The notes under the pieces were generated by a model that was given only the letters and a program-made list of their open reading frames with translations, was not told the DNA's origin and did no database searches. The translations under genes were made by a program, and so were the position numbers. A stretch of DNA of 64,000 nt from a virus (lineage: Duplodnaviria > Heunggongvirae > Uroviricota > Caudoviricetes), in the IMG/VR virus record IMGVR_UViG_2917886563_000007. One strand, 5' to 3'. Shown piece after piece: positions 1,666 through 64,000 of this stretch (the first letter of the stretch is position 1; every line of letters starts with the position of its first letter).

Positions 1666-1939
1666 CTCAACTCCGCTGAAAAGTAAAACATAAAACGGTA
1701 AAACCAAATGGTTTTACCGTTTAAAAGGAAATGTTCAGGGGAATGATATATATCTTAATGTTTTTAGAATGGATTCATATATGATGTTGATCTTATTCAA
1801 GATATCCTAGAGTATCATTCTGTTGATAACATATTGAATTTGGTTAAAATAATTGAGCCTGATATCCCTTTTTACTGAATTTCAAGAGGTATTGGGTTGT
1901 GTTCGTTCGCCCAATTCTATTGATGACAAGGAAAAGCAA

Positions 1940-9833: not shown

Positions 9834-9884
9834 CGCATTCGTAATGCGAAGGTCGTAGGTTCGACTCCTATTATCGGCACCATC
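9834..9884 (+). repeat. tRNA-Thr (thrW-type) 3' fragment; direct repeat, attL of lambdoid prophage and right-end repeat of the P4-like island
   Basis: cgcattcgtaatgcgaaggtcgtaggttcgactcctattatcggcacca matches the anticodon-to-CCA half of tRNA-Thr(CGU) as recalled; the upstream sequence does not match the 5' half, so not an intact gene. Confidence 0.8.
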
Positions 9885-34288: not shown

Positions 34289-35314
34289 ATGTCGATGTAC
34301 ACAACCGCCCAGCTGCTGGCGGCAAATGAGCAGAAATTTAAGTTTGATCCGCTGTTTCTGCGTCTCTTTTTCCGTGAAAGCTATCCCTTCACCACGGAGA
34401 AAGTCTATCTCTCACAAATTCCGGGACTGGTAAACATGGCGCTGTACGTTTCGCCGATTGTTTCCGGTGAGGTTATCCGTTCCCGTGGCGGCTCCACCTC
34501 TGAATTTACGCCGGGATATGTCAAACCCAAGCATGAAGTGAATCCGCAGATGACCCTGCGTCGCCTGCCGGATGAAGATCCGCAGAATCTGGCGGATCCG
34601 GCTTACCGTCGCCGTCGCATCATCATGCAGAACATGCGTGACGAAGAGCTGGCCATTGCCCAGGTCGAAGAGATGCAGGCAGTTTCTGCCGTGCTTAAGG
34701 GCAAATACACCATGACCGGTGAAGCCTTCGATCCGGTTGAGGTGGATATGGGCCGCAGTGCGGCGAATAACATCACGCAGTCCGGCGGCACGGAGTGGAG
34801 CAAGCGTGACAAGTCCACGTATGACCCGACCGACGATATCGAAGCCTACGCGCTGAACGCCAGCGGTGTGGTGAATATCATAGTGTTCGATCCGAAAGGC
34901 TGGGCGCTGTTCCGTTCCTTCAAAGCCGTCAGGGAGAAGCTGGATACCCGTCGCGGCTCTCATTCCGAGCTGGAGACAGCGGTGAAAGACCTGGGTAAAG
35001 CGGTGTCCTATAAGGGGATGTATGGCGATGTGGCCATCGTCGTGTATTCCGGACAGTACGTGGAAAACGGTGTCAAAAAGAACTTCCTGCCGGACAACAC
35101 GATGGTGCTTGGGAACACTCAGGCACGCGGTCTGCGCACCTATGGCTGTATTCAGGATGCGGATGCATTGAGTGAGGGTATTAATGCGTCTCCTCGTTAT
35201 CCGAAAAACTGGAAGACATCCGGCGATCCGGCGCGTGAGTTCACCATGATTCAGTCAGCACCGCTGATGCTGCTGGCTGATCCTGATGAGTTCGTGTCCG
35301 TACAACTGGCGTAA
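34289..35314 (+). CDS. E: Major capsid protein E
   Basis: 341 aa MSMYTTAQLLAANEQKFKFDPLFLRLFFRESYPFTTEKVYL... as lambda gpE. Confidence 0.97.
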   Translation: MSMYTTAQLLAANEQKFKFDPLFLRLFFRESYPFTTEKVYLSQIPGLVNMALYVSPIVSGEVIRSRGGSTSEFTPGYVKPKHEVNPQMTLRRLPDEDPQNLADPAYRRRRIIMQNMRDEELAIAQVEEMQAVSAVLKGKYTMTGEAFDPVEVDMGRSAANNITQSGGTEWSKRDKSTYDPTDDIEAYALNASGVVNIIVFDPKGWALFRSFKAVREKLDTRRGSHSELETAVKDLGKAVSYKGMYGDVAIVVYSGQYVENGVKKNFLPDNTMVLGNTQARGLRTYGCIQDADALSEGINASPRYPKNWKTSGDPAREFTMIQSAPLMLLADPDEFVSVQLA

Positions 35315-38278: not shown

Positions 38279-38694
38279 GTTTTGCCCTGAAACTGGCGCG
38301 TGAGATGGGGCGACCCGACTGGCGCGCCATGCTTGCCGGGATGTCATCCACGGAGTATGCCGACTGGCACCGTTTTTACAGCACCCATTATTTTCATGAT
38401 GTTCTGCTGGATATGCACTTTTCCGGGCTGACGTACACCGTGCTCAGCCTGTTTTTCAGCGATCCGGATATGCATCCGCTGGATTTCAGTCTGCTGAACC
38501 GGCGCGAGGCTGACGAAGAGCCTGAAGATGATGTGCTGATGCAGAAAGCGGCAGGGCTTGCCGGAGGCGTTCGTTTTGGCCCGGACGGGAATGAAGTTAT
38601 CCCCGCTTCCCCGGATGTGGCGGACATGACGGAGGATGACGTAATGCTGATGACAGTATCAGAAGGGATCGCAGGAGGAGTCCGGTATGGCTGA
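38254..38694 (+). CDS. T: T portion of the G-T tail assembly chaperone, made by programmed -1 frameshift from G
   Basis: Slippery heptamer GGGAAAG at 38254-38260 near the end of G; overlapping ORF in the -1 frame extends to 38694. Confidence 0.8.
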   Translation, partial: GKVFDGELSFALKLAREMGRPDWRAMLAGMSSTEYADWHRFYSTHYFHDVLLDMHFSGLTYTVLSLFFSDPDMHPLDFSLLNRREADEEPEDDVLMQKAAGLAGGVRFGPDGNEVIPASPDVADMTEDDVMLMTVSEGIAGGVRYG

Positions 38695-41248
38695 ACCGGT
38701 AGGCGATCTGGTCGTTGATTTAAGTCTGGATGCGGCCAGATTTGACGAGCAGATGGCCAGAGTCAGGCGTCATTTTTCCGGTACGGAAACTGATGCGAAA
38801 AAAACAGCGGCAGTCGTTGAACAGTCAATGAACCGGCAGGCGCTGGCTGCACAGAAAGCGGGGATTTCCGTCGGGCAGTATAAAGCCGCCATGCGTATGC
38901 TGCCTGCGCAGTTCACCGACGTGGCCACGCAGCTTGCAGGCGGGCAAAGTCCGTGGCTGATCCTGCTGCAACAGGGTGGTCAGGTGAAGGACTCCTTCGG
39001 CGGGATGATCCCCATGTTCAGGGGGCTTGCCGGTGCGATCACCCTGCCGATGGTCGGGGCCACCTCGCTGGCGGTGGTGACCGGTGCGCTGGCGTATGCC
39101 TGGTATCAGGGCAACTCAACCCTGTCCGATTTCAACAAAACGCTGGTCCTTTCCGGCAATCAGTCGGGTCTGACGGCAGATCGTATGCTGGTCCTGTCCA
39201 GAGCAGGGCAGGCGGCAGGGCTGACGTTTAACCAGACCAGCGAGTCACTCAGCGCACTGGTTAAGGCGGGGGTAAGCGGTGAGGCTCAGATTGCGTCCAT
39301 CAGCCAGAGTGTGGCGCGTTTCTCCTCTGCATCCGGCGTGGAGGTGGACAAGGTCGCTGAAGCCTTCGGGAAGCTGACCACAGACCCGACGTCAGGGCTG
39401 ACAGCGATGGCGCGCCAGTTCCATAACGTGACGGCGGAGCAGATTGCGTATGTTGCTCAGTTGCAGCGTTCCGGCGATGAAGCCGGGGCATTGCAGGCGG
39501 CGAACGAGGCCGCAACGAAAGGGTTTGATGACCAGACCCGACGCCTGAAAGAGAACATGGGCACGCTGGAAACCTGGGCAGACAGGACAGCACGGGCATT
39601 CAAATCCATGTGGGATGCGGTGCTGGATATTGGTCGTCCTGATACCGCTCAGGAGATGCTGATTAAGGCAGAGGCTGCGTTTAAGAAAGCGGACGACATC
39701 TGGAATCTGCGCAAGGATGATTATTTTGTTAACGATGAAGCGCGGGCGCGTTACTGGGATGATCGTGAAAAGGCCCGTCTTGCGCTTGAAGCCGCCCGAA
39801 AGAAGGCTGAACAGCAGAGTCAACAGGACAAAAATGCGCAGCAGCAGAGCGATACCGAAGCGTCACGGCTGAAATATACCGAAGAGGCGCAGAAGGCTTA
39901 CGAACGGCTGCAGACGCCGCTGGAGAAATATACCGCCCGTCAGGAAGAACTGAACAAGGCACTGAAAGACGGGAAAATCCTGCAGGCAGATTACAACACG
40001 CTGATGGCGGCGGCGAAAAAGGATTATGAAGCGACGCTGAAAAAGCCGAAACAGTCCGGCGTGAAGGTGTCTGCGGGCGATCGTCAGGAAGACAATGCTC
40101 ATGCTGCCCTGCTGACGCTTCAGGCAGAACTCCGGACACTGGAGAAGCATGCCGGAGCGAATGAGAAAATCAGCCAGCAGCGCCGGGATTTGTGGAAGGC
40201 AGAAAGTCAGTTCGCGGTACTGGAGGAGGCAGCACAACGTCGCCAGCTGTCCGCACAGGAGAAATCCCTGCTGGCGCATAAAGACGAGACGCTGGAGTAC
40301 AAACGCCAGCTGGCTGCACTTGGCGATAAGGTCACGTATCAGGAGCACCTGAATGCGCTGGCGCAGCAGGCGGATAAATTCGCACAGCAACAACGGGCAA
40401 AACGGGCAGCCATTGAGGCGAAAAACCGGGGGCTGACTGACCGGCAGGCAGCGCGGGACGCCACGGAACAGCGCCTGAAGGAACAGTATGGCGATAATCC
40501 GCTGGCGCTGAATAGCGTCATGTCAGAGCAGAGAAAGACCTGGGCGGCTGAAGACCAGCTTCGTGGAAGCTGGATGGCAGGCCTGAAGTCCGGCTGGAGC
40601 GAGTGGAAAGAGAGCGCCACGGACAGTATGTCGCAGGTTAAAAGTGCTGCCACGCAGACCTTTGATGGTATTGCGCAGAATATGGCGGCGATGCTGACCG
40701 GCAGTGAGCAGAACTGGCGCAGCTTCACCCGTTCCGTGCTGTCCATGATGACAGAAATTCTGCTTAAGCAGGCAATGGTGGGGATTGTCGGGAGTATCGG
40801 CAGCGCCATTGGCGGGGCTGTTGGTGGCGGCGCATCAGCATCAGGCGGTACAGCCATTCAGGCCGCTGCGGCGAAATTCCATTTTGCGACCGGGGGATTT
40901 ACGGGAACCGGCGGCAAATATGAGCCAGCGGGGATTGTTCACCGTGGTGAATTTGTCTTCACGAAGGAGGCAACCAGCCGGATTGGCGTGGGGAATCTCT
41001 ACCGGCTGATGCGCGGCTATGCCACCGGTGGTTATGTCGGTACACCGGGCAGCCTGGCGGACAGCCGGTCGCAGGCGTCCGGGAAGTTTGAGCAGAATAA
41101 CCATGTGGTGATTAATAACGACGGCACGAACGGTCAGATAGGGCCACAGGCGCTGAAGGCTGTTTATGACGTAGCCCGTAAGGCGGCAATGGATGTCGTG
41201 ACCGGGCAGATGCGTGATGGTGGTCTGTTCTCCGGAGGTGGGCGATGA
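38687..41248 (+). CDS. H: Tail tape measure protein H
   Basis: 853 aa, same length and position as lambda gpH. Confidence 0.95.
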   Translation: MAEPVGDLVVDLSLDAARFDEQMARVRRHFSGTETDAKKTAAVVEQSMNRQALAAQKAGISVGQYKAAMRMLPAQFTDVATQLAGGQSPWLILLQQGGQVKDSFGGMIPMFRGLAGAITLPMVGATSLAVVTGALAYAWYQGNSTLSDFNKTLVLSGNQSGLTADRMLVLSRAGQAAGLTFNQTSESLSALVKAGVSGEAQIASISQSVARFSSASGVEVDKVAEAFGKLTTDPTSGLTAMARQFHNVTAEQIAYVAQLQRSGDEAGALQAANEAATKGFDDQTRRLKENMGTLETWADRTARAFKSMWDAVLDIGRPDTAQEMLIKAEAAFKKADDIWNLRKDDYFVNDEARARYWDDREKARLALEAARKKAEQQSQQDKNAQQQSDTEASRLKYTEEAQKAYERLQTPLEKYTARQEELNKALKDGKILQADYNTLMAAAKKDYEATLKKPKQSGVKVSAGDRQEDNAHAALLTLQAELRTLEKHAGANEKISQQRRDLWKAESQFAVLEEAAQRRQLSAQEKSLLAHKDETLEYKRQLAALGDKVTYQEHLNALAQQADKFAQQQRAKRAAIEAKNRGLTDRQAARDATEQRLKEQYGDNPLALNSVMSEQRKTWAAEDQLRGSWMAGLKSGWSEWKESATDSMSQVKSAATQTFDGIAQNMAAMLTGSEQNWRSFTRSVLSMMTEILLKQAMVGIVGSIGSAIGGAVGGGASASGGTAIQAAAAKFHFATGGFTGTGGKYEPAGIVHRGEFVFTKEATSRIGVGNLYRLMRGYATGGYVGTPGSLADSRSQASGKFEQNNHVVINNDGTNGQIGPQALKAVYDVARKAAMDVVTGQMRDGGLFSGGGR

Positions 41249-43650: not shown

Positions 43651-46600
43651 ATGGGTAAAGGCAGCAGTAAGGGGCATACCCCGCGCGAAGCGAAGGACAA
43701 CCTGAAATCCACGCAGTTGCTGAGTGTGATCGATGCTATCAGCGAAGGGCCGATTGAAGGTCCGGTGGATGGATTAAAAAGCGTGCTGCTGAACAGTACA
43801 CCGGTGCTGGACAGTGAGGGGAATACCAACATCTCCGGTGTCACGGTGGTGTTCCGGGCAGGTGAGCAGGAGCAGACACCGCCGGAGGGATTTGAATCCT
43901 CCGGTTCCGAGACGGTACTGGGTACGGAAGTGAAATACGACACGCCGATCACCCGGACTATCACGTCTGCAAATATCGACCGTCTGCGCTTTACCTTCGG
44001 TGTGCAGGCACTGGTGGAAACCACCTCAAAGGGTGACAGGAATCCGTCGGAAGTCCGCCTGCTGGTTCAGATACAACGTAACGGTGGCTGGGTGACAGAA
44101 AAAGACATCACCATTAAGGGCAAAACCACGTCGCAGTATCTGGCCTCAGTGGTGGTGGATAACCTGCCGCCGCGCCCGTTTAATATCCGGATGCGCAGGA
44201 TGACGCCGGACAGCACCACAGACCAGCTGCAGAACAAAACACTCTGGTCGTCATACACCGAAATCATCGATGTGAAACAGTGCTACCCGAACACGGCACT
44301 GGTTGGCGTACAGGTGGACTCGGAGCAGTTCGGCAGCCAGCAGGTGAGCCGTAATTATCATCTTCGCGGGCGCATTCTGCAGGTGCCGTCGAACTATAAC
44401 CCGCAGACGCGACAATACAGCGGTATCTGGGACGGAACGTTTAAGCCAGCATACAGCAACAACATGGCATGGTGTCTGTGGGATATGCTGACCCACCCGC
44501 GCTACGGCATGGGGAAACGTCTTGGTGCGGCGGATGTGGATAAATGGGCGCTGTATGTCATCGGCCAGTACTGCGACCAGTCAGTGCCGGACGGCTTTGG
44601 CGGCACGGAGCCGCGCATCACCTGTAATGCGTACCTGACCACACAGCGCAAGGCGTGGGATGTGCTCAGTGATTTCTGCTCGGCGATGCGCTGTATGCCG
44701 GTATGGAACGGGCAGACGCTGACGTTCGTGCAGGACCGACCATCAGATAAGGTGTGGACCTATAACCGCAGTAATGTGGTGATGCCGGATGATGGCGCGC
44801 CGTTCCGCTACAGCTTCAGCGCCCTGAAGGACCGCCATAATGCCGTTGAGGTGAACTGGATTGACCCGGATAACGGCTGGGAGACGGCGACAGAGCTTGT
44901 GGAGGACACGCAGGCCATTGCCCGTTACGGTCGTAACGTCACGAAGATGGATGCCTTTGGCTGTACCAGCCGGGGGCAGGCGCACCGCGCCGGGCTGTGG
45001 CTGATTAAAACGGAACTGCTGGAAACGCAGACCGTGGATTTCAGCGTGGGCGCAGAAGGCCTTCGCCATGTGCCGGGCGATGTTATTGAAATCTGCGATG
45101 ATGACTACGCGGGGATCAGCATCGGCGGGCGCGTGCTGGCGGTGAACAGCCAGACGCGGACACTGACGCTCGACCGTGAAATCACGCTGCCATCCTCCGG
45201 CACCACGCTGATAAGCCTGGTTGACGGTGAGGGTAATCCGGTCAGTGTGGAGGTCCAGTCCGTCACCGACGGCGTGAAAGTGCAAGTGAGTCGGGTTCCT
45301 GACGGGATAGCTGAATACAGCGTATGGGGGCTGAAGCTGCCGACGCTGCGCCAGCGCCTGTTCCGCTGCGTGAGTATCCGTGAGAATGACGACGGCACGT
45401 ATGCCATCACCGCTGTGCAGCATGTGCCGGAGAAAGAGGCCATCGTGGATAACGGGGCGCACTTTGACGGCGACCAGAGCGGCACGGTGAATGGTGTCAC
45501 GCCGCCAGCGGTGCAGCATCTGACCGCAGAAGTCACCGCAGACAGCGGGGAATACCAGGTGCTGGCGCGCTGGGATACGCCGAAGGTGGTGAAGGGGGTG
45601 AGCTTTATGCTTCGCCTGACCGTGGCAGCGGATGACGGCAGTGAGCGGCTGGTCAGCACGGCCCGGACGACAGAAACCACATACCGCTTCACGCAACTGG
45701 CGCTGGGAAACTACAGGCTGACAGTCCGGGCGGCAAATGCCTGGGGGCAGCAGGGCGATCCGGCGTCGGTATCGTTCCGGATTGCCGCACCGGCAGCGCC
45801 GTCGCGGATTGAGCTGACGCCGGGCTATTTTCAGATAACCGCCACGCCGCATCTTGCCGTTTATGACCCGACGGTACAGTTTGAATTCTGGTTCTCGGAA
45901 AAGCGGATTGCGGATATCAGGCAGGTTGAAACCACAGCCCACTATCTTGGCACGGCGCTGTACTGGATAGCCGCCAGTATCAATATCAAACCGGGCCATG
46001 ATTATTATTTTTATATCCGCAGTGTGAACACCGTTGGCAAATCGGCATTCGTGGAGGCTGTCGGTCGGGCGAGCGATGATGCGGAAGGTTACCTGGATTT
46101 TTTCAAAGGCCAGATAACCGAATCCCATCTCGGCAAGGAGCTGCTGGAAAAAGTCGAGCTGACGGAGGATAACGCCAGCAAACTGGAGGAGTTCTCGAAA
46201 GAGTGGAAAGACGCCAACGATAAATGGAATGCCATGTGGGGCGTCAAAATTGAGCAGACCGAAGACGGCAAACATTATGTCGCGGGGCTTGGCCTCAGCA
46301 TGGAGGATACAGAGGAAGGCAAACTGAGCCAGTTCCTGGTTGCCGCTAACCGTATCGCGTTTATTGACCCGGCAAACGGGAATGAAACGCCGATGTTTGT
46401 GGCGCAGGGCAACCAGATATTCATGAACGAAGTGTTCCTGAAGTATCTGACGGCTCCCACCATTACCAGCGGCGGCAATCCGCCGGTATTTTCCCTGACA
46501 CCGGACGGGCGGCTGACGGCGAAAAATGCCGATATCAGCGGTAACGTGAATGCGAACTCCGGGACGCTCAACAACGTCACGATAAATGAGAACTGTACGA

Positions 46601-47064
46601 TTAAGGGAATGCTCGAGGCTACTCAGGTCAGAGGTGACTTCGTTAAAGCTGTATCTAAGCCATTCCCGAAAAAAACTGGCTCGTGGGGCGATACGGAAAC
46701 ACCAGGCGGGACGGTTACAGTCACCATTTACGATGATCATAACTTTGATCGCCAGATTATTATTCCGCCCATTATTTTTAATGGTGTGGCGTATGACGAT
46801 CCGGGGAGCGGTAATAACCCGGGAGGTACGCGATACACGGGTTATGGTTTTGAAGTTCGCAAAAACGGCGTATTAATCGCATCCAGAGAAACTAAAGGAG
46901 CCATTCCCGGTAGTTACAGTGCGGTTATTGATATGCCGAGTGGTGGTGGTAGTGTCACTCTGGAGTTTAAGATTTTCCAGAAAGGCAATCAGGGCGCAGG
47001 TAACATCACAGACTGTACGGTGATTGTGACCAAAAAAGCTGCTTCCGGTATCAGTATCCGTTGA
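43651..47064 (+). CDS. J: Central tail fibre / host specificity protein J
   Basis: 1137 aa [54 protein letters not shown] as lambda J. Confidence 0.95.
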
Positions 47065-53830: not shown

Positions 53831-54274
53831 TCAGAAACCTCTAAATTCATGTAATTTTGAAGATAGCTCTTCATTCTTTTTTATGAAGTCTAATAAATAC
53901 TCTTCAGTTATTATTATTTGATTTCCATCCTTATACTTAGTTGCTAACATCTGGTTATCATTATCTGATGAGATACCTTCCGGAGCGGTGATGCGAAAAC
54001 TATGCATTATTCTATTGCGGATAATGACAAGCTCTTCAAAAAGAGTAGCAATAGTATCGTCTGATTTTTTTGAAATGGTTTCTTTGATAGGGATTTTAAG
54101 CTGGCCAGAAGTTTTATCTATTAACGCATACCAGTTGTAACTTTCATCATCATCTTCCCTTAAAATATTTTCAATGATAAAACCATTGTTGGAGTTGAAA
54201 ACACAAACGGCAGTGCCAACAAGTTCTCTATATTTTTTTGACGGTAATGATTGGCGCGAAAAAACTTCATACAT
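53831..54274 (-). CDS. Hypothetical protein, attR-proximal AT-rich cluster (contains an Rx4H motif; HEPN-like?)
   Basis: 147-aa ORF with gaggg RBS; motif RNRIMH near the centre; AT-rich. Confidence 0.5.
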   Translation of the reverse strand: MYEVFSRQSLPSKKYRELVGTAVCVFNSNNGFIIENILREDDDESYNWYALIDKTSGQLKIPIKETISKKSDDTIATLFEELVIIRNRIMHSFRITAPEGISSDNDNQMLATKYKDGNQIIITEEYLLDFIKKNEELSSKLHEFRGF

Positions 54275-54439
54275 GATAATTTAACCCTCATGAAAGTAGG
54301 TGATAATATCAGAGTTGAACTCTGCTCCGGCAGTGGAGCGCAACCAAATTCGCAGCATTTTCAGTCCTATCCTAACTCTGCTCACTGTATGTCACAAGCG
54401 GAATTTAATAACATCAGGCTATCCCCTTAGCAGGACTGG

Positions 54440-54697
54440 TCACCAGTTATCTTTTGATAAATCAAGGGCTGCAGATTGAATCCATCGCTCATAGGCAGTT
54501 CCCAATTGCCCTATGCTTTGGATACCAGGGATATTCATTGTCAAAATAGCTTGATGGTTAACCTGTTTCGCCCCCCATAAATACCCATACTCTACGTACC
54601 CTCTGATTTTCAAAGCCCTACAAATTACTTCTTTTCTAAAAAAAGCATCAAGTTGAATGTTTTTTGTATAATTAAAGAGATGGTTCTCAGCATTCAT
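54440..54697 (-). CDS. Hypothetical protein; possibly the C-terminal part of a frameshifted gene continuous with 54687-55169
   Basis: 85-aa ORF whose ATG lies 11 nt inside the upstream ORF, just after an A7 (plus-strand T7) tract. Confidence 0.4.
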   Translation of the reverse strand: MNAENHLFNYTKNIQLDAFFRKEVICRALKIRGYVEYGYLWGAKQVNHQAILTMNIPGIQSIGQLGTAYERWIQSAALDLSKDNW

Positions 54698-55169
54698 CTC
54701 TATGAAGTCTTTTTTTATTTTGTATTACTGACAACACTTTCTCTTTATTTAACACTCTACCATAATACGAGGTTCCATCATTGCAGTGTGCGTATATCTC
54801 ATTGAAGTAAACGGATGCTCCTCGCCAATCAGCGAAGCTCAAGGACTCCCCGCTCAGGTGGTTATGATGCAATACAAAGTTAGGCCGATTACTGATTGAG
54901 TCCAGCAATGCTGAAGAGGGATTTGCTCGATTCTCTAGTTTTTCTGTACTGAATTCGAGTAGCGGACCTTTAGGGCAATGAAGTGAAGCAGAGTATTCCC
55001 AGCGTGCACACTCACCGGCTTCGACTAACAATAGTGCGGTTATTTGTTCTAAGTCAGTCATGTTTCTTAACATGCTTAGCTCCCATAGCTTATTGACTAA
55101 TGTATATCGGCAACACGACTCCACATCTTGAGATATCTCTTCATTTTTTGAATCCAGATGTGAGCACAA
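54687..55169 (-). CDS. Hypothetical protein with a divergent JAB/RadC-like HNH..S..D motif
   Basis: 160-aa ORF; motif LHHNHLSGESLSFAD with an upstream Glu (LLVEAGE); the match to JAMM/RadC is imperfect (one residue short). Confidence 0.4.
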   Translation of the reverse strand: MCSHLDSKNEEISQDVESCCRYTLVNKLWELSMLRNMTDLEQITALLLVEAGECARWEYSASLHCPKGPLLEFSTEKLENRANPSSALLDSISNRPNFVLHHNHLSGESLSFADWRGASVYFNEIYAHCNDGTSYYGRVLNKEKVLSVIQNKKRLHRDEC

Positions 55170-55508: not shown

Positions 55509-55556
55509 ATTCGTAATGCGAAGGTCGTAGGTTCGACTCCTATTATCGGCACCATC
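55509..55556 (+). repeat. tRNA-Thr 3' fragment, second direct repeat (attR of lambdoid prophage)
   Basis: attcgtaatgcgaaggtcgtaggttcgactcctattatcggcaccatc repeats the 9834-9884 sequence; no tRNA 5' half upstream. Confidence 0.8.
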
Positions 55557-57656
55557 AAGAAAATCAATAACTTAGCTTAACTTCTCTAAGAAATTGTATC
55601 TTCTGTTATCACTTACAAACGCCTATACGTTGTTATGGGCTTTGGTAGTGTAACACGTATGGGCGAGTAGTTCCCAGGCTCAACCTCGTAACAAGTTCCT
55701 TTGAAGCTGGAAGACGTGCCACCGTCTCTAAACCTTCTACCAAAACTCTTAGCAAGATGTTCCACACCTGGCGCGGTGTCCAATGATGCTACACGTCGTG
55801 AGACGTTGCAGAGGATAAACAGGCTAAATGATGGGAAGAGTTTTAAGTGCAATAGTGGATTAAAGCCCACCTCTTCAAAACCTAACTTGATCGGGAAAGA
55901 ATCAAGCTCTAGCACGGTTTCGTCCACCGGAGTACAACGGGTGCCTGATAAGAGAAGAACTGCTAAGACTTCATAGCTTTTGTGAAAAAGCCCTTTTTAG
56001 TGGATACGCCTACGGCGCTTATTTTTTGGTATAACCATCAAAGGCGCTTTATGGCTCCTATTGTCTTGAAAATGTATCTTTACTTGTATTGTGTTTTATG
56101 CGTAGTCTCCCTGTGTAGTATGTAACTTGTTAATTTTCATATGAATACAGAGGCACACGATGAAAAACATTGCAGCTATAAAACGTAATAACCGCAAGAT
56201 TCACGCTCGTAAGTTCCTGTCTACGCCAGAAGGAAAAGCCTGGCTAGAGCGTAAACAGAGAGAGAACGAAGAAAGAAAACTCCTTAGTGAGTTGAAATGG
56301 CTTAGAGAGGATTTCTGAAAATCTCCAGAACGCAACAGGACGCATTCTAACGCTGTTTTCATTGCTTGGTATAGGAATGTACAGGTGATGTGTGTTTAAT
56401 GCGTCTGTGAGCTTGTTTTGTGCCTTATTTTGCATTTTCATAATGCAGAAGAGAACACGGAAAGCCTTAAAATTAATTATTGGGGTATTTAAGGCTATTT
56501 TCAGGGTATTTAAGGGTATTAAACTTGATTTAATTGATTAAAATATAAACAGATAGTTCTGTATCTTATTGATTTATAAGGTTGTTTTTAAATAAAGGTA
56601 AATAAAAAATAAATAGCCATAAATAGCTATAAATACATCTAAATACCTATATCCCTTCCCTTATGGCTAGATTGCGAGAAGTGCTTAACGCGATTTTCAG
56701 CGCCCCCCGATCTGGAAAATCCAGAATCCCCAAATATCAGCAAGGAATTTTCTTGCGTAATCAACATCGTTTTTACCTATTAAATCATTACACAGAAAGC
56801 CTTTCTGTAATGTCTCTCACTAAACTTTCACTAAACACGAGAATGATCGGTTTTATGTCGGATCAGATGCTAGAAACAGCACCACGTCTCACAAGGGCTG
56901 TAAGCGATGAAACCAGTGTTTATGCGGGTGCAGGTCAAAATATAGGCCAAAATCCATTTAACATAATAAACGTAATATGCACTAAGGAACACATAGAACG
57001 CCTTGAATTGATGTATCAGGGGAAAAGTGATGGATTTTTTACGTAGGAGCACGAGAGGGCTTATGTTGACTTTTGTATGCTATGAAATATAATTAAAGGT
57101 TTTTTTTGTTTTTATCGTGTGATGTAGTGGATTACACAGGGGAATAGATTAAATGGTGTTCTGTTTATACAGGTTTATTTGTTAGATCAACAATTTGGCA
57201 TTTCTAAACAGATGTTTGAACGTTGCCAAATGTCTTGACAACACAAGAAAAGGGCTTGCTATGCCACGCATTACACGAAATAAGGCTGTAAAAACAAAAT
57301 AAATTTTAAAATTTGCACAAACGAGAAAACTCGTTCAGAAACAAGCAGAACAATTTTTAGCCAACAATTTCTGATGGTGTGCTGTAAGCCGCATCACACA
57401 AGGTTTTGCGAAAGTGATGTAAAAGTGAAGAAAGTAAGAATTGCACTTTTAAGCTGCTTTTCATTGAATTTTTTAGTATGGAATTACACAGGGAATAGAG
57501 AGCATTATTCTATGATTTACACAGGGAATATAGGGGGATTATGGCACACACATAGAAAGGCATTACACAGGGTGAGTGCTATGTGATGATTGGTAGTAAC
57601 GGTAGGTCACTGTGAGCTACCCCCTATCAAGTCTAACAGGGGTTTATATGTAGTGG

Positions 57657-58874
<1,218 letters not shown>

Positions 58875-58885
<11 letters not shown>

Positions 58886-59681
58886 AATTTACTATGCCAC
58901 TACAGAGATACTTCCTACGACCTTGATCACCCATCATCGAATCGACGCCGCTTCTATAGGCCCATTCTGTAATGTTGTTCATCTGGTTAACGTCTACACC
59001 GCCCAGCTTCGCACGGCTATACAATTCACCCAGCGTTTCAGCATTCGCAAAGCTGTTAGTAACAAATTCAGAGGCTTTGCTCATAGCCATATACGTAGCG
59101 CCAGCGCCTAAGCCACCCAGCATAACAGCCGCAGCACCGCCGCCAATACTCCCGCTACCCTTAACAGGTGCATAGGCTTTAGCGTGAGCGTTACGATTGC
59201 CATTAATCTTACGTTGTTGCTGTTGTAGGCGTTTCATTTGGCTATTCATACGTGCCAGACTAATAGCTCCTCTTTCATATTGGAGGGCAATTTCTCTAGC
59301 CTGTGCAATAGCTTTATATTGTTCCGCTACAGAAAGGCGGTGCAATGCACTAATGCTTGATCCAACGTCTAAAAGCTTTAATTCTGCCTTCTCTTTGCGT
59401 GCTGCCAGGGCTTTTTGTTCTCTTGCAACTACACGTTGAGCGGCTAATTGTGCTTTAGCATTAGCTTTATCAGCCTGTTCTTGCTTTTTAGCAATATCGT
59501 CTACGTCTTTTTTTGCTTTAGCGGTTGATTGTTTATGTGTCTTAACACGCAATTCTATATCTTTCACCGCCGCCATTTGTTTACGAAGTTTTTCTACTTC
59601 TGCTTTTGCTTTCTCTAATGATGGTCGATCAACCTGGAAGGTGACAACGTTTGATAAGCGGCTGACGTTAAGTTCTAACAT
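58875..59681 (-). pseudogene. Phage structural gene (tape-measure-like, coiled-coil, Lys/Ala-rich) truncated by the IS3-family insertion
   Basis: 268-codon ORF running from 59681 into the IS end, where the frame terminates; no continuation on the other side of the IS. Confidence 0.5.
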
Positions 59682-59715: not shown

Positions 59716-59913
59716 TTATTGTTTTTTAGAGCAATAGTATTGAATTGCTTCGAAAGTGCTGCACCCAGTCTGAAAGACACGCTGGCGCACATTATTTGCA
59801 TCAATTTCTAAAAGGCGGCAAAGCGCCGATGTGTTTATAACTGATTCCTCGCTAATAGCTGCCAGTTCTTTTACAGCCTTAAGAATAAAGGATTGTGGGT
59901 TTTCTGTATTCAT
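59716..59913 (-). CDS. Hypothetical small protein
   Basis: 65-aa ORF between the capsid-like gene and the disrupted gene. Confidence 0.35.
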   Translation of the reverse strand: MNTENPQSFILKAVKELAAISEESVINTSALCRLLEIDANNVRQRVFQTGCSTFEAIQYYCSKKQ

Positions 59914-60064
59914 TGGTTTTCTCTCACATACATATTTTTATTTGGGTTTGTAGACAGTAGAAAAACAAAAAGGGCAAAGAGATTCGTTACTGTATTTGCG
60001 CCTACAGGTTAGTTAATCCCTTTACCCTTATTGCCCCGATGGGGAATCGTCTATTAACGCTTTA

Positions 60065-61096
60065 TTACGCAGCAGATCCGAAGATGATAGCTTGCGGAAT
60101 GTTGTTTACTGGCAGATAAGATGTCTCAGTAACCACAGATGGGAATTGGAATTCATCCTTGATTAGATATTGGTGATGCAACACGGCATCTTGACCTAAC
60201 TCAGCATGACGCACACCAACGCCGCTATGAAGCTGGTAACACTGTGCCGCTTTATCCATTACCGGAACAATTGCGAAACCGTTCTCTCCGATGTGAGCAA
60301 CAATCTCAGGAAACATTGACACATCAATAACAGTGATCCCACCAATCTGGAAAGAGTCATAGGCTGGGTTAGAATCAACCATACGGGTAAACAGGGCCGT
60401 AGCACTCGCATCGCCTGCATATTTCACCATGTCACTGATCAGCGGGTTAGATGACAAACCATCAGCAGCAGCGCCAGCAGCAAAGATAATTACACCAGTT
60501 CGCTTTGCAGCAAGACCAGACCCCAGCTTTTCACTCTGTAAGCGCACCGCTTTACGAATAGCAAGGAACGGGTTAACAGTAGTCGATGCAAAGTCGATAG
60601 CGGGTACCGTGGTTTTAGCCTGACCGTCGAGGAAGTCGAGATCACCTTGTCCGGCATATTCAGATTCAACTTTCAGGCCCAGCAGCGCGGTAATCAGATC
60701 CACTTCAACACGGTTTGCGTGTGAACGGTAATGAGCCTCAGAGAAATCATTAACCGCTACCAGCATAGCATCAGAACGGTTTGGATATTGGCGGCTGTAT
60801 TGTTCCAGGTCACGAGAAGTAACAGCGTTAATACTGCCGACGTGTTTCATCTGGAAAAGTTTGTTTGACCATTCCTGACGTTTAGAGGCGTTCCAGTCGC
60901 TTTGAGCGTAAGGCGAGGTTTCCCCAGCTACCTGCACAAACTGATCAATCAGGTCGGTAAGAAGAATGCTGTTTTCTGTATGATATTGCACATCGAACAG
61001 ATCGAGATTAGTAATCAGGGTATTAAGTGCATTCTCATAAGCAAAAGGAGTTACTACCGCAGTATTAACGCCAAAATATGTTGATAAATCATTCAT
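60065..61096 (-). CDS. Putative major capsid protein (lambda E-like size and context)
   Basis: 343-aa ORF directly downstream of a ~127-aa gene, the same arrangement as lambda D-E; no direct sequence match recalled. Confidence 0.4.
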   Translation of the reverse strand: MNDLSTYFGVNTAVVTPFAYENALNTLITNLDLFDVQYHTENSILLTDLIDQFVQVAGETSPYAQSDWNASKRQEWSNKLFQMKHVGSINAVTSRDLEQYSRQYPNRSDAMLVAVNDFSEAHYRSHANRVEVDLITALLGLKVESEYAGQGDLDFLDGQAKTTVPAIDFASTTVNPFLAIRKAVRLQSEKLGSGLAAKRTGVIIFAAGAAADGLSSNPLISDMVKYAGDASATALFTRMVDSNPAYDSFQIGGITVIDVSMFPEIVAHIGENGFAIVPVMDKAAQCYQLHSGVGVRHAELGQDAVLHHQYLIKDEFQFPSVVTETSYLPVNNIPQAIIFGSAA

Positions 61097-61110
61097 TATT
61101 ATTTTCCTTG

Positions 61111-61494
61111 TTAAGTCGTAGGGATCGCAAGTTCTTCATAACCAGCAATTACAAAGCCGAGAGATTGCAGTTTTGCAATAACACTTGCCTTTTCCATACT
61201 GTTAAATTCAATCCCATCTTCAGCCAGAATAACGAAAGTAGGATGTGCAACCACTATGCTTTCCTGTCCTTCATAAGCCGGTTCAACTGCTACGTGAGCT
61301 ATATCAGAAGCGGTTGTTGCTTTGGTGCCATCGGCTTTCAGCAAAGCCCCGACAATAAGATCGTCAGTGAGAGGTGAAGCCAGTTTGACGAGGCGATCTT
61401 GCAGCACTGGATCAGCAGCGTAAGCTACTACCTTACAGCGTGAACGGGAGTTATCCGCATTCACTGCTTTTAATTTTCCATATGGGTTAGCCAT
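61111..61494 (-). CDS. Putative head decoration/scaffold protein
   Basis: 127-aa ORF immediately upstream of the capsid-like gene. Confidence 0.35.
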   Translation of the reverse strand: MANPYGKLKAVNADNSRSRCKVVAYAADPVLQDRLVKLASPLTDDLIVGALLKADGTKATTASDIAHVAVEPAYEGQESIVVAHPTFVILAEDGIEFNSMEKASVIAKLQSLGFVIAGYEELAIPTT

Positions 61495-61498
61495 AAGA

Positions 61499-61738
61499 TT
61501 ATTTTCCTTTCAGTTGTTTAATTTTAGATTTAAGGGCATCAGCAAGACTAACCGCATCAGCCGATTTAAATAATTGAGCAGTGGTAGAACGAAGACTTTC
61601 GGGAGTAACTCCCAACAGTGCGGCAACCTTAATGAGGTTTTCATCACTAACAATCATCGTTTCCCCGTCTTTGCTGATAATCATTTCTTGTTTCATAAAT
61701 AACGTTCCTGTTAGTGCCAGACAAATAAAAAGCCCCAA
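61499..61738 (-). CDS. Hypothetical small protein
   Basis: 79-aa ORF (likely start MKQEMIIS) coupled to the downstream gene. Confidence 0.35.
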   Translation of the reverse strand: MGLFICLALTGTLFMKQEMIISKDGETMIVSDENLIKVAALLGVTPESLRSTTAQLFKSADAVSLADALKSKIKQLKGK

Positions 61739-62680
61739 TGCCGTAAGAGGTTAATTCTGACCAGCAAAGGGGCTTTAACGTGCGGGCAATTACATAATTG
61801 ATAAGTTAAACTATAAGAGGATTAAACATATCAGCAAATACACTTTTTAAATATACTTGATGATATGCTTAAAGGGTGAATAGATACTCCTGAAAACATG
61901 CTCTTAGGAAAACATGCGGAATCAATCAGGAATATCTATTCGGGGCGCGGTGGCCAACCGCTATCTTTCATGGTGTGGATGCACCAGTCAGATTTTAAGG
62001 AATCACTATTCCAATCTACTCACAGATTAAATTTTTAATAATGATTAACTACACCAACAGTAATCTACCGTTTCAGAAAATCGTTTTTACAACCAAAGCT
62101 TATAGATCCGCATTCTATAAAACCCGTTTTGCTATCAATATTTCCAAAGTTTATTGCACCATTCTTAGCTAAACTCTCTCTGCTTGCGGCTAACGCTATG
62201 CAGATGATTGTTTTTGACAACAACTTAATAGATTATTCTGTTACTAACTTCTGTCATTAAATAATAGTTTAATGATGTTAGTAAATAGTTATAAAATATA
62301 ACTATCAGTGTAAGGCTCTTTAATGTTTTCTGACAAAATAAGGAGCTTTAGGATAAGCATAGATGAAAAATAAGAGCGGGAAGGGCAAGGAGATAACACC
62401 TACCCGCTTTTATCAAAATTAAGCACAATGCCTAACAACATTCATCAACACAACGTAGAAACAATCAACAATCAAAGAGGGAGTTATGATTATTCTAAAA
62501 CTTCTTGAGAGATGGAAGGTAATATTTGTTAGAGGTTAATGCCACTCAACCTTTGAGGCTATCACCTTCCATATGCAGGGATTTATGACAGTAGAAGGAT
62601 TAACACCAGTCAAAACCTTTTTATCTACCCCTAATATCATTATATAATGATATCGTTATAAATGCAAATGATTTTCATTA

Positions 62681-62989
62681 TCACTTAGAAGAAATAGCAC
62701 TTTTTGCTAAATCATCTACTAATTGCTGAATCTCTTCACTTGCAGCCTTTAACGTGCTGGCGGTGTATGTGATGATTTGAGTGCACAGCCTGGCATCGTC
62801 CTCTGATAGCTCTAAATCGCTCACCAGAGAGATAAAATCGTCAAGGCTTACATTCACCTTCATTAAGCTAATAACGCATTGAGAGAGCGTGTAATCGCAT
62901 AAATCTGAATAGGCTTGATTTATTCTTGTTTGTAGTGAGATAGTCAGATCTAAAAGTTGTTCCATTGCATTGCTAATATCTTCTTCCAT
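62681..62989 (-). CDS. Hypothetical protein
   Basis: 102-aa acidic ORF, AT-rich. Confidence 0.35.
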   Translation of the reverse strand: MEEDISNAMEQLLDLTISLQTRINQAYSDLCDYTLSQCVISLMKVNVSLDDFISLVSDLELSEDDARLCTQIITYTASTLKAASEEIQQLVDDLAKSAISSK

Positions 62990-63234
62990 TATGCGGCTTC
63001 TCCTTGTAATGCATCATTAATCATATTCAATACGATGTTAAAAGGTGTCTTGAGCGTCAGCACTTCATCACGATAACGCTCTAATGCTTCGTAGTCTTCT
63101 GTTTCTTTTGCCAGTCGGATTAACTCAGCATAGTTTTTTGCATCAGACAGGATCATCTGAAATAATTGTGTTTCTTGAATATAGCCAATCATTATTTTTC
63201 CTTTTTCGAATATTTTCATTGGGCGCTTATACAT
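62989..63234 (-). CDS. Hypothetical protein
   Basis: 81-aa ORF coupled to the downstream ORF. Confidence 0.35.
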   Translation of the reverse strand: MYKRPMKIFEKGKIMIGYIQETQLFQMILSDAKNYAELIRLAKETEDYEALERYRDEVLTLKTPFNIVLNMINDALQGEAA

Positions 63235-63249
63235 ACACCCATCATTTTA

Positions 63250-63633
63250 TTAGTTAGAACGTTTGTTAGAAGCTAATGTATCTTCTAAATGAGCCATCAG
63301 ATCGACTTCCGATGCACCACCTACACAATTATTGAAAGCGTTAAATCCCAAAAAATGATGATAGGAGCTAAACCCTAAAAGCTGCCAACGTTTCAGAGTG
63401 CCATCAGAAATGATAGTTTGTTTTCTTGTTCTTGGGCGAAAGTAAACGCCTGGCATTGACTGGATTATTTCTAATTCTTCATCGCTTAATTCAGGGGATT
63501 CTGCTTCAAGAATAAATATTATCTCTTCCCCTGGAATTTCGTTATTGGTGTGTGTCGGTGGACGTTGTCTTGTTGAATTGAAGTTACTGTTTTTTTCAAT
63601 ACGTTTTAAGTTGTTCTTTTTCTTTCTTCCCAT
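63250..63633 (-). CDS. Hypothetical protein
   Basis: 127-aa ORF with basic N-terminus MGRKKKNNLKRIEKN. Confidence 0.35.
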   Translation of the reverse strand: MGRKKKNNLKRIEKNSNFNSTRQRPPTHTNNEIPGEEIIFILEAESPELSDEELEIIQSMPGVYFRPRTRKQTIISDGTLKRWQLLGFSSYHHFLGFNAFNNCVGGASEVDLMAHLEDTLASNKRSN

Positions 63634-63730
63634 TTTTCCCTCTTTTTATGTGGATTATAAAAACTGGACGCCATTGTTACGATGAATATCGCCATAAATG
63701 CATTTGCCATATGTATTGCCCAATCTGTTG

Positions 63731-64000
63731 TTATTGATTGTTTGTGATAAACAATTCAAAATCTTTGTTTAATTTCAAAAGACGAAATGTAGTGCTGTTA
63801 ATCCCTTCATAATCCAGCACACCGAACGATGTAAAATGGTTTAACCAATGATTCACATGTTGTGCGCTGTAGCCGCCTAAACTACAAAAGCTAACCACTG
63901 TCGGGGGTGAGAACTCTATGTCCAAGACAGCTTTTAAAATGTGGTATCCGCTCTCAGTTATTTCAATAGTTTTGTTTCCTATAGTGATGTTATAAGTCAT
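63731..64000 (-). CDS. Hypothetical protein (may extend beyond window end)
   Basis: 89-aa ORF whose start codon sits exactly at the window edge. Confidence 0.3.
   Translation of the reverse strand: MTYNITIGNKTIEITESGYHILKAVLDIEFSPPTVVSFCSLGGYSAQHVNHWLNHFTSFGVLDYEGINSTTFRLLKLNKDFELFITNNQ

Follow-up and report, generated by a model that had tools for sequence, protein, structure and literature searches.

Head-decoration and capsid genes of an IS-broken copy of a widespread ~13-kb enterobacterial island, a putative phage satellite

The flagged genes at positions 59716-64000 of the window (the whole 64,000-nucleotide stretch analysed) are head-decoration and capsid genes of an IS-broken copy of a widespread ~13-kb enterobacterial island. 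Four virion genes of this element (decoration, capsid, tape measure, and hub) are homologous to those of the ~148-kb virulent phi92-like myoviruses, by which the Stephanstirmvirinae (Phapecoctavirus and Justusliebigvirus) are meant. The element is probably, though far from certainly, a representative of a putative new, undescribed satellite family that would build its own decorated capsid and chimeric tails. All of the flagged open reading frames were found where the initial annotation had placed them, on the minus strand. Its assertion that the window holds no terminase, portal, tail, or integrase gene has to be withdrawn, given that a tape-measure-like 5′ fragment lies directly downstream of the flagged span and that a complete lambda-like prophage (gpA terminase, lambda portal, E capsid, tape measure, J, and integrase) occupies the same window, though this prophage is an element separate from the capsid-bearing island. 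Tail and integrase genes seemed to be absent from the island itself because of an IS3 insertion and the edge of the window.

The assignment of the 127-aa and 343-aa gene pair to a decoration and a major capsid protein, proposed from arrangement at the outset, is borne out by structure models. The 127-aa protein (61111-61494, minus strand) was identified as a head decoration protein from its AlphaFold2 model (pLDDT 70.8, pTM 0.68) and its position. Foldseek placed the ~123-aa auxiliary capsid chains of Sf14, Bas63, and PhiTE at the top of the PDB matches (E 2.7e-5, TM 0.65), lambda gpD and P21 SHP being weaker matches, and the top BFVD matches were named "head decoration protein". The decoration gene, with a dN/dS of 0.17-0.22, is followed immediately by the capsid gene in 74 of 76 metagenome loci. 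No pairwise similarity to the phage counterpart was detected, and the best match of the family profile in phage PHB05 was the decoration protein gp115, a weak one (E 0.077); the predicted homology with the phage protein is drawn from fold and position only.

The 343-aa protein (60065-61096, minus strand), recognised by predicted structure and profile as a major capsid protein of the HK97 fold, matches phrog_29 "major head protein" (E 1e-4). Pfam PF03864 (Phage_cap_E) is matched by 11 of 15 members of the capsid family, the window protein itself reaching no Pfam model. The HK97 fold, put forward as a check, was recovered in the model (pLDDT 54.7, pTM 0.57), whose 50 top PDB matches are all HK97 capsids or encapsulins, with PhiTE ranking first (1e-9), the ICP1 coat among the best, and lambda E 13th (Foldseek E 3e-6). 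Searched against PHB05, the family profile found the capsid protein gp116 as its sole match (E 8e-9), with which a sibling capsid allele also aligns (E 1e-12), at an identity between element and phage capsids of ~23% at best. The protein is a distant member of the lambda-E/phi92-type capsid lineage, in a family that is small and isolated (60 matches among 1.84 billion cluster representatives). The likeness to lambda D/E originally noted therefore holds for the identity of the pair but not for kinship with lambda, the relatives being phi92-like virulent myoviruses.

Intact copies of the element begin with one of the tRNA genes thrW, glyU, and leuX, often followed by a serine invertase, and continue with a noncoding stretch of 1.5-2.6 kb that bears iteron-like repeats, then small genes, a winged-helix Rep-like protein, four or five more small genes, and a ~0.5-0.95-kb leader ahead of the capsid operon. 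The operon opens with a 65-aa gene, continues with decoration, major capsid, and a second 65-aa gene, and finishes with the tape measure, to which some copies add a Dit-like hub. The element is closed by attR, preceded by a tyrosine integrase gene that reads in the other direction. In four loci (L001, L002, L003, and L014), 12.7-14.3 kb lie between direct repeats of 20-34 nt that copy the 3′ end of the tRNA. This layout was found in at least ten genera (E. coli, Klebsiella, Citrobacter, Buttiauxella, Kosakonia, Phytobacter, Kluyvera, Scandinavium, Raoultella, and Yersinia), across which capsid identity falls to 29%, and in about 80 metagenome loci, where, with denominators that differ by feature, the tape measure lies downstream of the capsid in 59 of 60, the integrase gene has the opposite orientation in 34 of 40, and no ORF is longer than the tape measure in 24 of 25. 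The element genes are under purifying selection, the hub, tape-measure, decoration, and capsid genes having dN/dS values of 0.08-0.22. Pfam records for element genes are limited to Resolvase, Dit_like, Phage_integrase, and Phage_cap_E, and no function could be assigned to six to eight of the core genes. The Rep-like protein has weak replication-initiator matches, and the iteron arrays differ between variants with different Rep alleles. One copy, with three IS insertions, resides on a conjugative IncF plasmid.

No copy carries a terminase or portal gene, no larger version was seen among about 110 loci, and the element has no protease/scaffold, connector, sheath, tube, fibre, or lysis genes; it would therefore form no particles alone. 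Neither a small terminase nor an Rpp-like factor, pac site, or cos site was identified in it. The terminal overlap of a circular assembly was found in none of 13 whole metagenome contigs of 10-21 kb. The IMG/VR matches, being contigs of 20-58 kb and so longer than the element, show no excised form, and are taken to be prophage calls from their isolate-genome-style identifiers (9 of 10).

The source contig (L017, 100% identical to the window over 10,270 nt) continues past the window end with rep, an invertase, and tRNA-Leu(CAA), then yjgR, lptG, and lptF; the element thus ends at tRNA-Leu (leuX), 4.4 kb beyond, and no complete prophage follows there. The first element gene inside the window is p89 (89 aa, 63731-64000, minus strand), next to the rep-like HTH gene just past the window end. 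It is a conserved small gene with a dN/dS of 0.14, 96.6% identical to L001 24829-25098 and 45% identical to its orthologue in L002, a glyU variant, and had no family match. The core gene p127b (127 aa, 63250-63633, minus strand) encodes a basic N-terminus and an acidic stretch; its orthologues in Klebsiella, Citrobacter, Buttiauxella, Phytobacter, and Kluyvera loci share 25-82% identity, the gene precedes that of the capsid in 50 of 53 metagenome loci, and it gave no Pfam, PDB, PHROG, or PADLOC match. Two further minus-strand ORFs of 81/67 aa (62989-63234) and 102 aa (62681-62989), annotated "hypothetical protein" in intact copies, are kept in E. coli variants, likewise with no family match.

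The ~0.9-kb AT-rich gap is as first described: 61740-62680 (0.94 kb, minus strand, 32-36% GC) holds no conserved or annotated ORF and forms the noncoding leader ahead of the capsid operon, a gap being found at the equivalent place in all family members. Within the leader a promoter scan gave a sigma70-like promoter (62639-62668), overlapped by a perfect 20-bp palindrome (62634-62653); also present is a ~70-nt conserved block that includes a GC hairpin (61947-62010), and a hairpin and T-run (61729-61776) come just before the first operon gene. The leader is 87% identical to that of variant L019, and against L002 conservation is confined to the ~70-nt block, which includes one compensatory hairpin change. 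Rfam gave no match in the equivalent stretch of L001. The first operon gene (61499-61696, minus strand, extendable to 61738; 65/79 aa) is annotated with 65 aa in L001 and has a 59% identical orthologue in L002 but no family match.

On the other side of the capsid gene, a 65-aa gene (59716-59913, minus strand) keeps its position in all loci at 30-47% identity, the place taken in the phage by a 57-aa pre-tape-measure gene, although no similarity to PHB05 gp125 was detectable. There follows the 5′ fragment of a tape-measure-like gene (58905-59681, within ORF 58875-59681, minus strand), some ~259 codons of a 613-aa protein, 96.9% identical to the N-terminus of the intact gene at L001 18936-20777, whose product matches phrog_16051 "tail length tape measure" (E 3e-34). 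The break point is occupied by a 1256-bp IS3-family element (57649-58904, minus strand; ORFs 58520-58831 and 57657-58484) with mapped terminal inverted repeats and TG...CA ends, which has no target duplication, as its flanks (ATA and GAG) differ. Beyond it lies part of another sibling element, of the thrW type, represented by its left end in inverted orientation (55510-57648, plus strand). This stretch contains a 52-aa gene (56160-56318) and noncoding DNA with a 45-nt copy of the tRNA-Thr 3′ end (55510-55554), and it shares 98.3% identity with the E. coli HD12481 element (L016) at the end next to thrW. The window copy was separated from its hub gene and integrase by an IS-linked rearrangement, for which the best explanation is an inversion between an IS copy in the leuX-borne sibling and one in the thrW-borne sibling; these genes are missing only for that reason, and the copy is disrupted and probably inactive.

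The virion genes stand in the same order in the element and in the phi92-like phages. The hub protein is 52% identical to Phapecoctavirus proteins (E 3e-58) and the tape measure 30% identical to that of ~148-kb coliphages by tblastn (E 1e-27), with the respective family profiles matching PHB05 gp127 (E 5e-91) and the tape measure protein gp126 (E 5e-105). Neither family profiles nor BLAST of element proteins gave any match to the resident lambdoid prophage. One such phage, inny, has a stretch of 625 nt that is 95.5% identical to the rep region of the element and is the only phage with that rep-region domain among 50,697 phage records, while an 85-nt noncoding block is common to the element and 65 Phapecoctavirus genomes at 81% identity, a block that goes with the invertase cassette and not with the whole family. 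These shared stretches show recent DNA exchange between the element and phi92-like phages.

The helper dependence, induction, packaging, small capsids, and chimeric tails that we infer for the satellite could come about as follows. Upon infection by a phi92-like phage, the element would be excised and use its own Rep/iteron module to replicate, and expression of the capsid operon would yield a small decorated shell sized for 13 kb. This shell would use the portal, scaffold, and terminase of the helper, though with a capsid so distant from that of the phage such use is not assured. The element's tape measure and hub would enter otherwise helper-made contractile tails, giving chimeric tails, so that the element spreads and helper yield is probably lowered.

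It is conceivable, but rather unlikely, that the element acts instead as a defence island, in which divergent capsid, tape-measure, and hub copies or the small genes would poison the assembly of phi92-like phages; it would then remain unpackaged and move only by its integrase, conjugative plasmids, or transduction. Structural homologues specific to one virulent phage group would suit such a role, as would the copy on a conjugative plasmid and the lack of any identified packaging function, and assembly-interference functions are known in satellites and PICIs (PMC11364771), with Rta in PLE11 as an instance. Against this, no PADLOC model matches the ten element genes tested, the integrase/att, Rep, and iteron modules fit satellite architecture, and the decoration and capsid pair is under purifying selection with co-swapped alleles, suggesting a working shell rather than a poison subunit. 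Defence and satellite readings overlap, because PLEs do both. That the element is the decayed remnant of a temperate phi92-like relative, with a few structural genes left by chance, is improbable: the IS-disrupted, rearranged window copy, the three IS insertions of the plasmid copy, and the absence of most virion genes would agree with decay, but the same minimal gene set and order recurs at three tRNA sites, in ten or more genera and throughout the metagenome loci, with intact ORFs and att repeats, the low dN/dS values, and no larger version with terminase or portal, and random decay would not converge on one layout. The original suggestion of a "satellite or remnant" accordingly stands in its satellite-like part, the remnant being contradicted by the layout kept in many genera and by purifying selection.

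A temperate lambda-like helper, for example the neighbouring prophage, is what the lambda D/E analogy would suggest, and a complete lambdoid prophage does lie in the same tandem array at thrW, both capsid proteins belonging to the broad PF03864 lineage. Such a helper is nonetheless very improbable, considering that element and resident-prophage proteins share no BLAST or profile similarity, that contractile-tailed phages of ~148 kb are what the tape measure and hub match, and that myovirus capsids lead the fold matches, with lambda E in 13th place. Hardly credible is a domesticated HK97 shell, such as an encapsulin-like compartment, or some other cellular use unrelated to phage transfer; encapsulins among the fold matches and the small, isolated capsid family would be in keeping with it, but phage capsids rank above encapsulins, the element encodes no cargo-like enzyme, and the capsid gene is always flanked by decoration, tape measure, and integrase within an att-bounded mobile element.

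Among known systems, lambda D/E shares with the element a decoration gene of ~110-130 aa directly upstream of a ~340-aa HK97 capsid gene and a long-range fold match, yet the window capsid shows no similarity to the lambda-like E in the same window, and the decoration/capsid pairs of phi92-, PhiTE-, and FelixO1-type myoviruses are nearer. The cf-PICIs of Enterobacteriaceae are likewise integrated ~10-15-kb satellites with their own HK97-fold capsid protein. They supply all the head and packaging functions themselves (portal, protease/scaffold, connectors, small and large terminase) and borrow nothing but tails, whereas the element is without portal, protease/scaffold, connectors, and terminases, and its virion genes relate to virulent myoviruses. 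Some cf-PICIs carry putative tape-measure genes (PMC12987554). Genes for a capsid protein and a tape measure protein are also found in the mycobacterial EPIP satellites (preprint PMC12822802). These satellites of Mycolicibacterium prophage HerbertWM thus share with the element a major capsid and tape measure while most virion genes are missing, but are set apart, by description, in also having a small terminase, head-tail adaptor, stopper, scaffold, and serine integrase, and their helper is a temperate actinophage, unlike the candidate helper here. Turning to the Vibrio PLEs, their TAC, TMP, and baseplate-hub proteins are 19-41% identical to those of ICP1 and are built into chimeric tails (PMC11838301; PMC12987554). 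PLEs and the element, likened by description, are both small integrated islands with a large virulent contractile-tailed phage as helper (candidate helper here), and the element's capsid protein has the ICP1 coat protein as one of its best structural matches. PLEs differ in having no capsid gene, the ICP1 coat being reshaped by the external scaffold TcaP, while the element itself encodes capsid and decoration proteins. PLEs integrate by a large serine recombinase, the element by a tyrosine recombinase; no tail assembly chaperone was recognised in the element, whose hosts are Enterobacteriaceae. In the tape measure and hub sub-module, with PLE proteins at 19-41% identity to their helper's and those of the element at 30% and 52%, the tail module of the element resembles that of the Vibrio PLEs.

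The flagged genes were found much as the initial annotation had described them, all on the minus strand of the window: in descending order of coordinates, ORFs of 89 aa (63731-64000), 127 aa (63250-63633), 81 aa (62989-63234) and 102 aa (62681-62989), an AT-rich gap (61740-62680; 32-36% GC) in which gene callers call no gene in any related locus, a 65/79-aa ORF (61499-61738), a second 127-aa ORF (61111-61494), the 343-aa ORF (60065-61096), and a 65-aa ORF (59716-59913). The last of the larger genes, the 343-aa protein, was without a Pfam match in its window form and displayed a weak PHROG match to 'major head protein' (E 1e-4), while 11 of 15 homologues at 40-49% identity matched PF03864 (phage major capsid protein E; best E 2.6e-9). 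An AlphaFold2 model built from 15 sequences was of low confidence (pLDDT 54.7, pTM 0.57); all of its 50 best PDB matches in Foldseek were nonetheless HK97-fold shells. PhiTE (E 1e-9) and the ICP1 coat of the PLE complex stood at the head of the list together with Bas63 and Sf14, and lambda E came thirteenth. The 127-aa protein encoded at 61111-61494 belongs to no family at the sequence level, and a PDB sequence-profile search returned no match. Its model, from 40 sequences, was better than that of the 343-aa protein (pLDDT 70.8, pTM 0.68) and resembles the auxiliary capsid chains of about 123 aa in Sf14, Bas63 and PhiTE (E 2.7e-5, TM 0.65), as well as 'head decoration protein' entries in a viral structure library, with lambda gpD and P21 SHP as weaker fold matches. 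Given the HK97 matches of the one protein and the decoration-fold matches of the other, the proposed reading of the pair as decoration plus major capsid protein is upheld, the former being a predicted head decoration protein on the basis of fold and position.

The suggestion that the window lacks terminase, portal, tail and integrase genes does not stand. The next ORF downstream of the flagged genes (58875-59681) is the 5′ part of a tape-measure-like gene, and a complete lambda-like prophage, which is a different element from the capsid-bearing one, also lies inside the window. This prophage and its cargo genes occupy 9834-55554 between direct repeats of the tRNA-Thr (thrW) 3′ end (9834-9882 and 55510-55554), with an integrase (9897-11060), gpA terminase (28866-30791), portal (30991-32592), E capsid (34289-35314), tape measure (38687-41248) and J (43651-47064). 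As the thrW repeats bracket the prophage, the window represents a tandem array of elements at thrW, and no full tRNA gene is found within it. Elsewhere, an AT-rich island (2-8 kb, about 35-40% GC) encodes a 1053-aa protein with SMC_N and AAA_21 (AbiEii-like ATPase) domains (1853-5014), which may be a defence gene. Three AT-rich minus-strand ORFs of 147, 85 and 160 aa (53831-55169) separate the prophage cargo from the second thrW repeat, the 147-aa and 160-aa ORFs having no Pfam match.

A contig of assembly GCA_004745245.1 (L017) matches the window at 100% identity, and on it the element continues past the window end with a rep-like gene, small genes, a noncoding stretch and an invertase, and stops at tRNA-Leu(CAA) (leuX), 4.4 kb beyond the window. 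The core genes yjgR, lptG, lptF and pepA then follow. Packaging, tail and lysis modules were not found beyond the window end in this contig, and the possibility that a complete prophage continues there can be set aside since the contig runs into the tRNA and then yjgR, lptG and lptF. At the other side, an IS3-family element (57649-58904; 1256 bp) interrupts the tape-measure gene after about 259 codons, without target-site duplication, the flanks ATA and GAG being different. Beyond it, 55510-57648 is the left end of a second, thrW-type sibling element in inverted orientation, including a 45-nt copy of the thrW 3′ end at 55510-55554. The insertion sequence hence joins the 5′ part of a leuX-borne tape-measure gene to the inverted left end of a thrW-borne sibling, a junction that fits an inversion of about 0.4 Mb between IS copies; the simplest account would be an inversion between two IS3 copies, one in each element. 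The integrase end of the window copy was lost from it in this IS3-linked rearrangement, and with both the hub gene (encoding a Dit-like tail protein) and the integrase outside the window, the copy is probably inactive.

The full layout is seen in L001, an intact element in E. coli FDAARGOS_1298 (NZ_CP070115, 400.9-413.9 kb). It begins with tRNA-Thr (thrW) and a serine invertase. After a noncoding stretch of 1.5 kb come two small genes, the gene of a helix-turn-helix protein (226 aa; weak matches to replication initiators), the four small genes known from the window, a 0.94-kb gap, and then a 65-aa gene, decoration, capsid and a second 65-aa gene. The tail genes follow, encoding a 613-aa protein that matches phrog_16051 'tail length tape measure' (E 3e-34) and a Dit-like protein of 225 aa (PF21821, E 4e-27), and a 425-aa tyrosine integrase (PF00589, E 1e-17) is encoded on the opposite strand. 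The element is closed by a 20-nt repeat of the tRNA 3′ end, giving a length of 12.96 kb, and comparable repeats bound the glyU copies in E. coli and Klebsiella and a thrW copy in Raoultella. Like phage satellites in general, intact copies carry an integrase and att repeats, the latter being tRNA 3′-end repeats of 20-34 nt that flank 12.7-14.3 kb.

Some 5.2 kb around the capsid pair recurs at 98-99% identity in the chromosomes of 179 out of 5426 complete E. coli genomes, and at least 1000 E. coli contigs are recorded with a capsid protein exactly like that of the window. The layout recurs in Klebsiella, Citrobacter, Buttiauxella, Kosakonia, Phytobacter, Kluyvera, Scandinavium, Raoultella and Yersinia, across which capsid identity falls to as low as 29%. 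The shared order runs from p127b (the 127-aa core gene at 63250-63633 in the window) and the gap through decoration, capsid and a small gene to the tape measure, which in some loci is followed by the hub gene; the integrase is encoded on the opposite strand. From 80 metagenome loci, the decoration gene adjoins the capsid gene in 74 of 76, and a tape measure lies downstream in 59 of 60. Where the element is fully visible, the tape measure is the largest ORF in 24 of 25. The integrase sits at its usual position in 34 of 40, and the hub gene is present in half (20/40). Searches with Pfam, PHROGs and precomputed Pfam annotations detected terminase, portal, protease, connector, sheath, tube, fibre or lysis genes in no locus of the family, leaving too few genes for making and filling a virion alone. 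The hub, tape-measure, decoration and capsid genes have dN/dS values of 0.08-0.22; together with the same gene order across genera and metagenomes, these low values argue that the element is a family and not a remnant.

Comparison of L001 with L019, a sibling E. coli variant, revealed tape measures that are 98% identical beside capsid genes diverged to saturation (decoration and capsid genes of the two thrW elements, L001 21161-22590 versus L019 5134-6553; pN about 0.58). Such a pairing points to whole-module swapping of head genes and indicates that capsid modules are exchanged as units. A whole element was also encountered on a conjugative IncF plasmid of an avian pathogenic E. coli strain (NZ_CP126938.1, 25734-48055), where IS3-family elements have inserted at three points, one each in the hub gene, the tape-measure gene and the large noncoding stretch. 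Two independent copies, this one and that of the window, have therefore been hit by insertion sequences in the tape-measure gene.

Upstream of the rep operon, the large noncoding stretch contains arrays that resemble iterons: five to six copies of TGTAACnnnnCGTTAC at spacings of 22, 33 and 55 nt in L001 (27073-27260), and five copies of ACCCCnACAGAATTCTGTTA in L017 (7747-7890, beyond the window end). The two elements differ in their Rep-like allele, and the arrays differ between variants with different alleles, as would be expected of a replicon. A role of the serine invertase as a switch was considered and rejected, the sole inverted-repeat pair (L001 26598-26882) having the same orientation in all 14 loci in which it occurs. 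Rfam detected only the tRNA in the intact element, and searches of the small core genes with PADLOC, NCBIfam, Pfam and PDB sequences gave nothing usable. Between the 0.9-kb gap and the structural region of PHB05 (a Justusliebigvirus), the longest match in sense or antisense was 13 nt, within the range of shuffled sequences. The structural intergenic regions of PHB05 contain ordinary sigma70-like promoters, so that a late-promoter motif test on the element is uninformative.

The tail genes provide a tie to phi92-like phages. At 52% identity (E 3e-58), the hub protein matches a protein found in Phapecoctavirus, among others in ESCO5, ESCO13 and nieznany, and the tape measure is about 30% identical to those of coliphages of about 146-150 kb. 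PHB05, whose portal is gp112 and putative scaffold gp114, has decoration (gp115) followed by capsid (gp116). The neck, sheath and tube genes come next, and beyond them a 57-aa gene, the tape measure (gp126) and the Dit-like gp127. Family profiles run against this region matched the hub to gp127 (E 5e-91), the tape measure to gp126 (E 5e-105) and the capsid to gp116 as its sole match (E 8e-9), with gp115 being the top match, a weak one (E 0.077), for decoration. The L019 capsid allele gives a full-length alignment with gp116 (23% identity, E 1e-12), as do many representatives of the capsid family. With the 343-aa protein itself as query, tblastn found no match among 50,697 phage records, hence the need for family profiles and a sibling allele in establishing the phage link. 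The capsid family is small and isolated, with 60 matches at E <= 1e-3 among 1.84 billion cluster representatives.

The replication region offers a further tie. In phage inny (Justusliebigvirus), 625 nt are 95.5% identical to the rep region of the element; they code for residues 1-140 of the Rep-like protein, to which an endonuclease domain is joined. Among the 50,697 phage records, inny alone carries this Rep-like domain. The product, inny_184 (MN850601.1, 119446-120769), is a chimera whose first 140 residues are 87.9% identical to the Rep-like protein and are followed by a second winged-helix region and then the endonuclease domain. The 60-aa gene upstream of it also matches the element, and phage muut has 242 nt of the stretch shared with inny, at 96.7% identity. 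In addition, an 85-nt noncoding block just past the invertase stop codon (L001 28307-28389), present only in invertase-bearing elements, has a counterpart of 81% identity in noncoding DNA of 65 Phapecoctavirus genomes (1129-1209 in the ESCO13 locus; 273-357 in the WPEC4 locus). It exhibited no covariation and no Rfam match. That the block lies close to the ends of deposited genomes does not point to a physical terminus, being due to an assembly overlap of 328 bp in phage WPEC4.

Since the element combines integration and replication modules with four virion genes and is devoid of packaging and most tail genes, it is best read as a satellite that depends on phi92-like virulent myoviruses as helpers. 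Homology and synteny with these phages, and the DNA exchanged with phage inny, would be indirect signs that its induction, packaging and transfer require them. Two genes of the element would suffice for a small decorated capsid, the helper would supply portal and terminase, and the element's tape measure and hub protein would be fitted into the helper's contractile tails. The broader proposal, a widespread new satellite family parasitising Phapecoctavirus, Justusliebigvirus and their relatives with its own capsid and chimeric tails, is advanced tentatively, its chances being put a little short of even.

Several other explanations were weighed against the helper-dependent satellite. The initial annotation had favoured a satellite or a remnant; the satellite-like character is borne out, while a decayed remnant is contradicted by the conserved layout and the constraint on its structural genes. 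It had likewise compared the capsid pair with lambda D/E, a likeness that holds for the decoration and HK97 folds and does not extend to the neighbouring lambdoid prophage. No BLAST or profile similarity was found between element proteins and any protein of that prophage, and dependence on a lambda-like helper is accordingly contradicted. Two further, less likely rivals are a non-transferring defence island and a domesticated shell. At 20-58 kb, the contigs of all ten IMG/VR matches exceed the element in length, and none represents an excised form; nine have identifiers in the style of isolate genomes, and the matches are taken as prophage calls. Among whole metagenome contigs of 10-21 kb, none of 13 tested had the terminal overlap of a circular assembly.

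Phi92-like phages are common candidates for phage therapy, and the element resides in about 3% of complete E. coli genomes, counting the window variant alone. A satellite of this kind could hijack or blunt such phages, affecting host-range predictions and the choice of therapeutic phage. If true, it would be an enterobacterial counterpart of the Vibrio PLEs and a hidden factor in the therapeutic success of phi92-like phages, with a new division of labour in which the satellite gives shell, decoration, tail ruler and hub, and the helper everything else. It would also offer a tractable E. coli system for studying how a capsid protein made by a satellite recruits portal and scaffold of foreign origin, and what leads satellites to replace the tape measure.

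Among known systems, cf-PICIs encode their own portal, protease/scaffold, head-tail connectors, and small and large terminase. The element resembles them in having its own major capsid protein (HK97 fold; PF03864 in family members), whereas portal, protease/scaffold, connectors and terminases were not found in the intact copies and the 25 fully visible metagenome loci. P4-like satellites are characterised by the capsid-size proteins Sid/Psu, a Delta/Ogr-type activator, the alpha primase-helicase and a cos site; unlike in these, no Sid/Psu, Delta/Ogr or alpha families were detected among the element proteins with Pfam, PHROGs and NCBIfam. PLEs have no capsid gene, remodel the helper coat by means of TcaP, use a large serine integrase and reside in Vibrio. 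By this description they are set apart from the element, which encodes capsid and decoration proteins itself, has a tyrosine integrase and is hosted by enterobacteria. Tail proteins are nevertheless encoded by all Vibrio PLEs, namely a chaperone, a tape measure and in many cases a baseplate hub; these are 19-41% identical to their ICP1 counterparts, and the PLEs build chimeric tails (PMC11838301, PMC12987554). The tail part of the element would, by analogy, have a direct precedent there, having its own tape measure and baseplate hub homologous to those of phi92-like phages, the presumptive helpers. Mycobacterial EPIPs likewise have a capsid protein together with a tape measure and also possess a small terminase and connectors (PMC12822802), which the element lacks. 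The satellites of virulent phages described in the literature found are from Vibrio (PLE, PICMI), Streptomyces and Streptococcus; the openly searchable literature yielded no report of one in E. coli or Klebsiella, and its full texts no description of this family or its RefSeq protein accessions. As it departs in defining features from cf-PICIs, PLEs and P4-like satellites alike, the element is best placed as a variant of its own among probable satellites.
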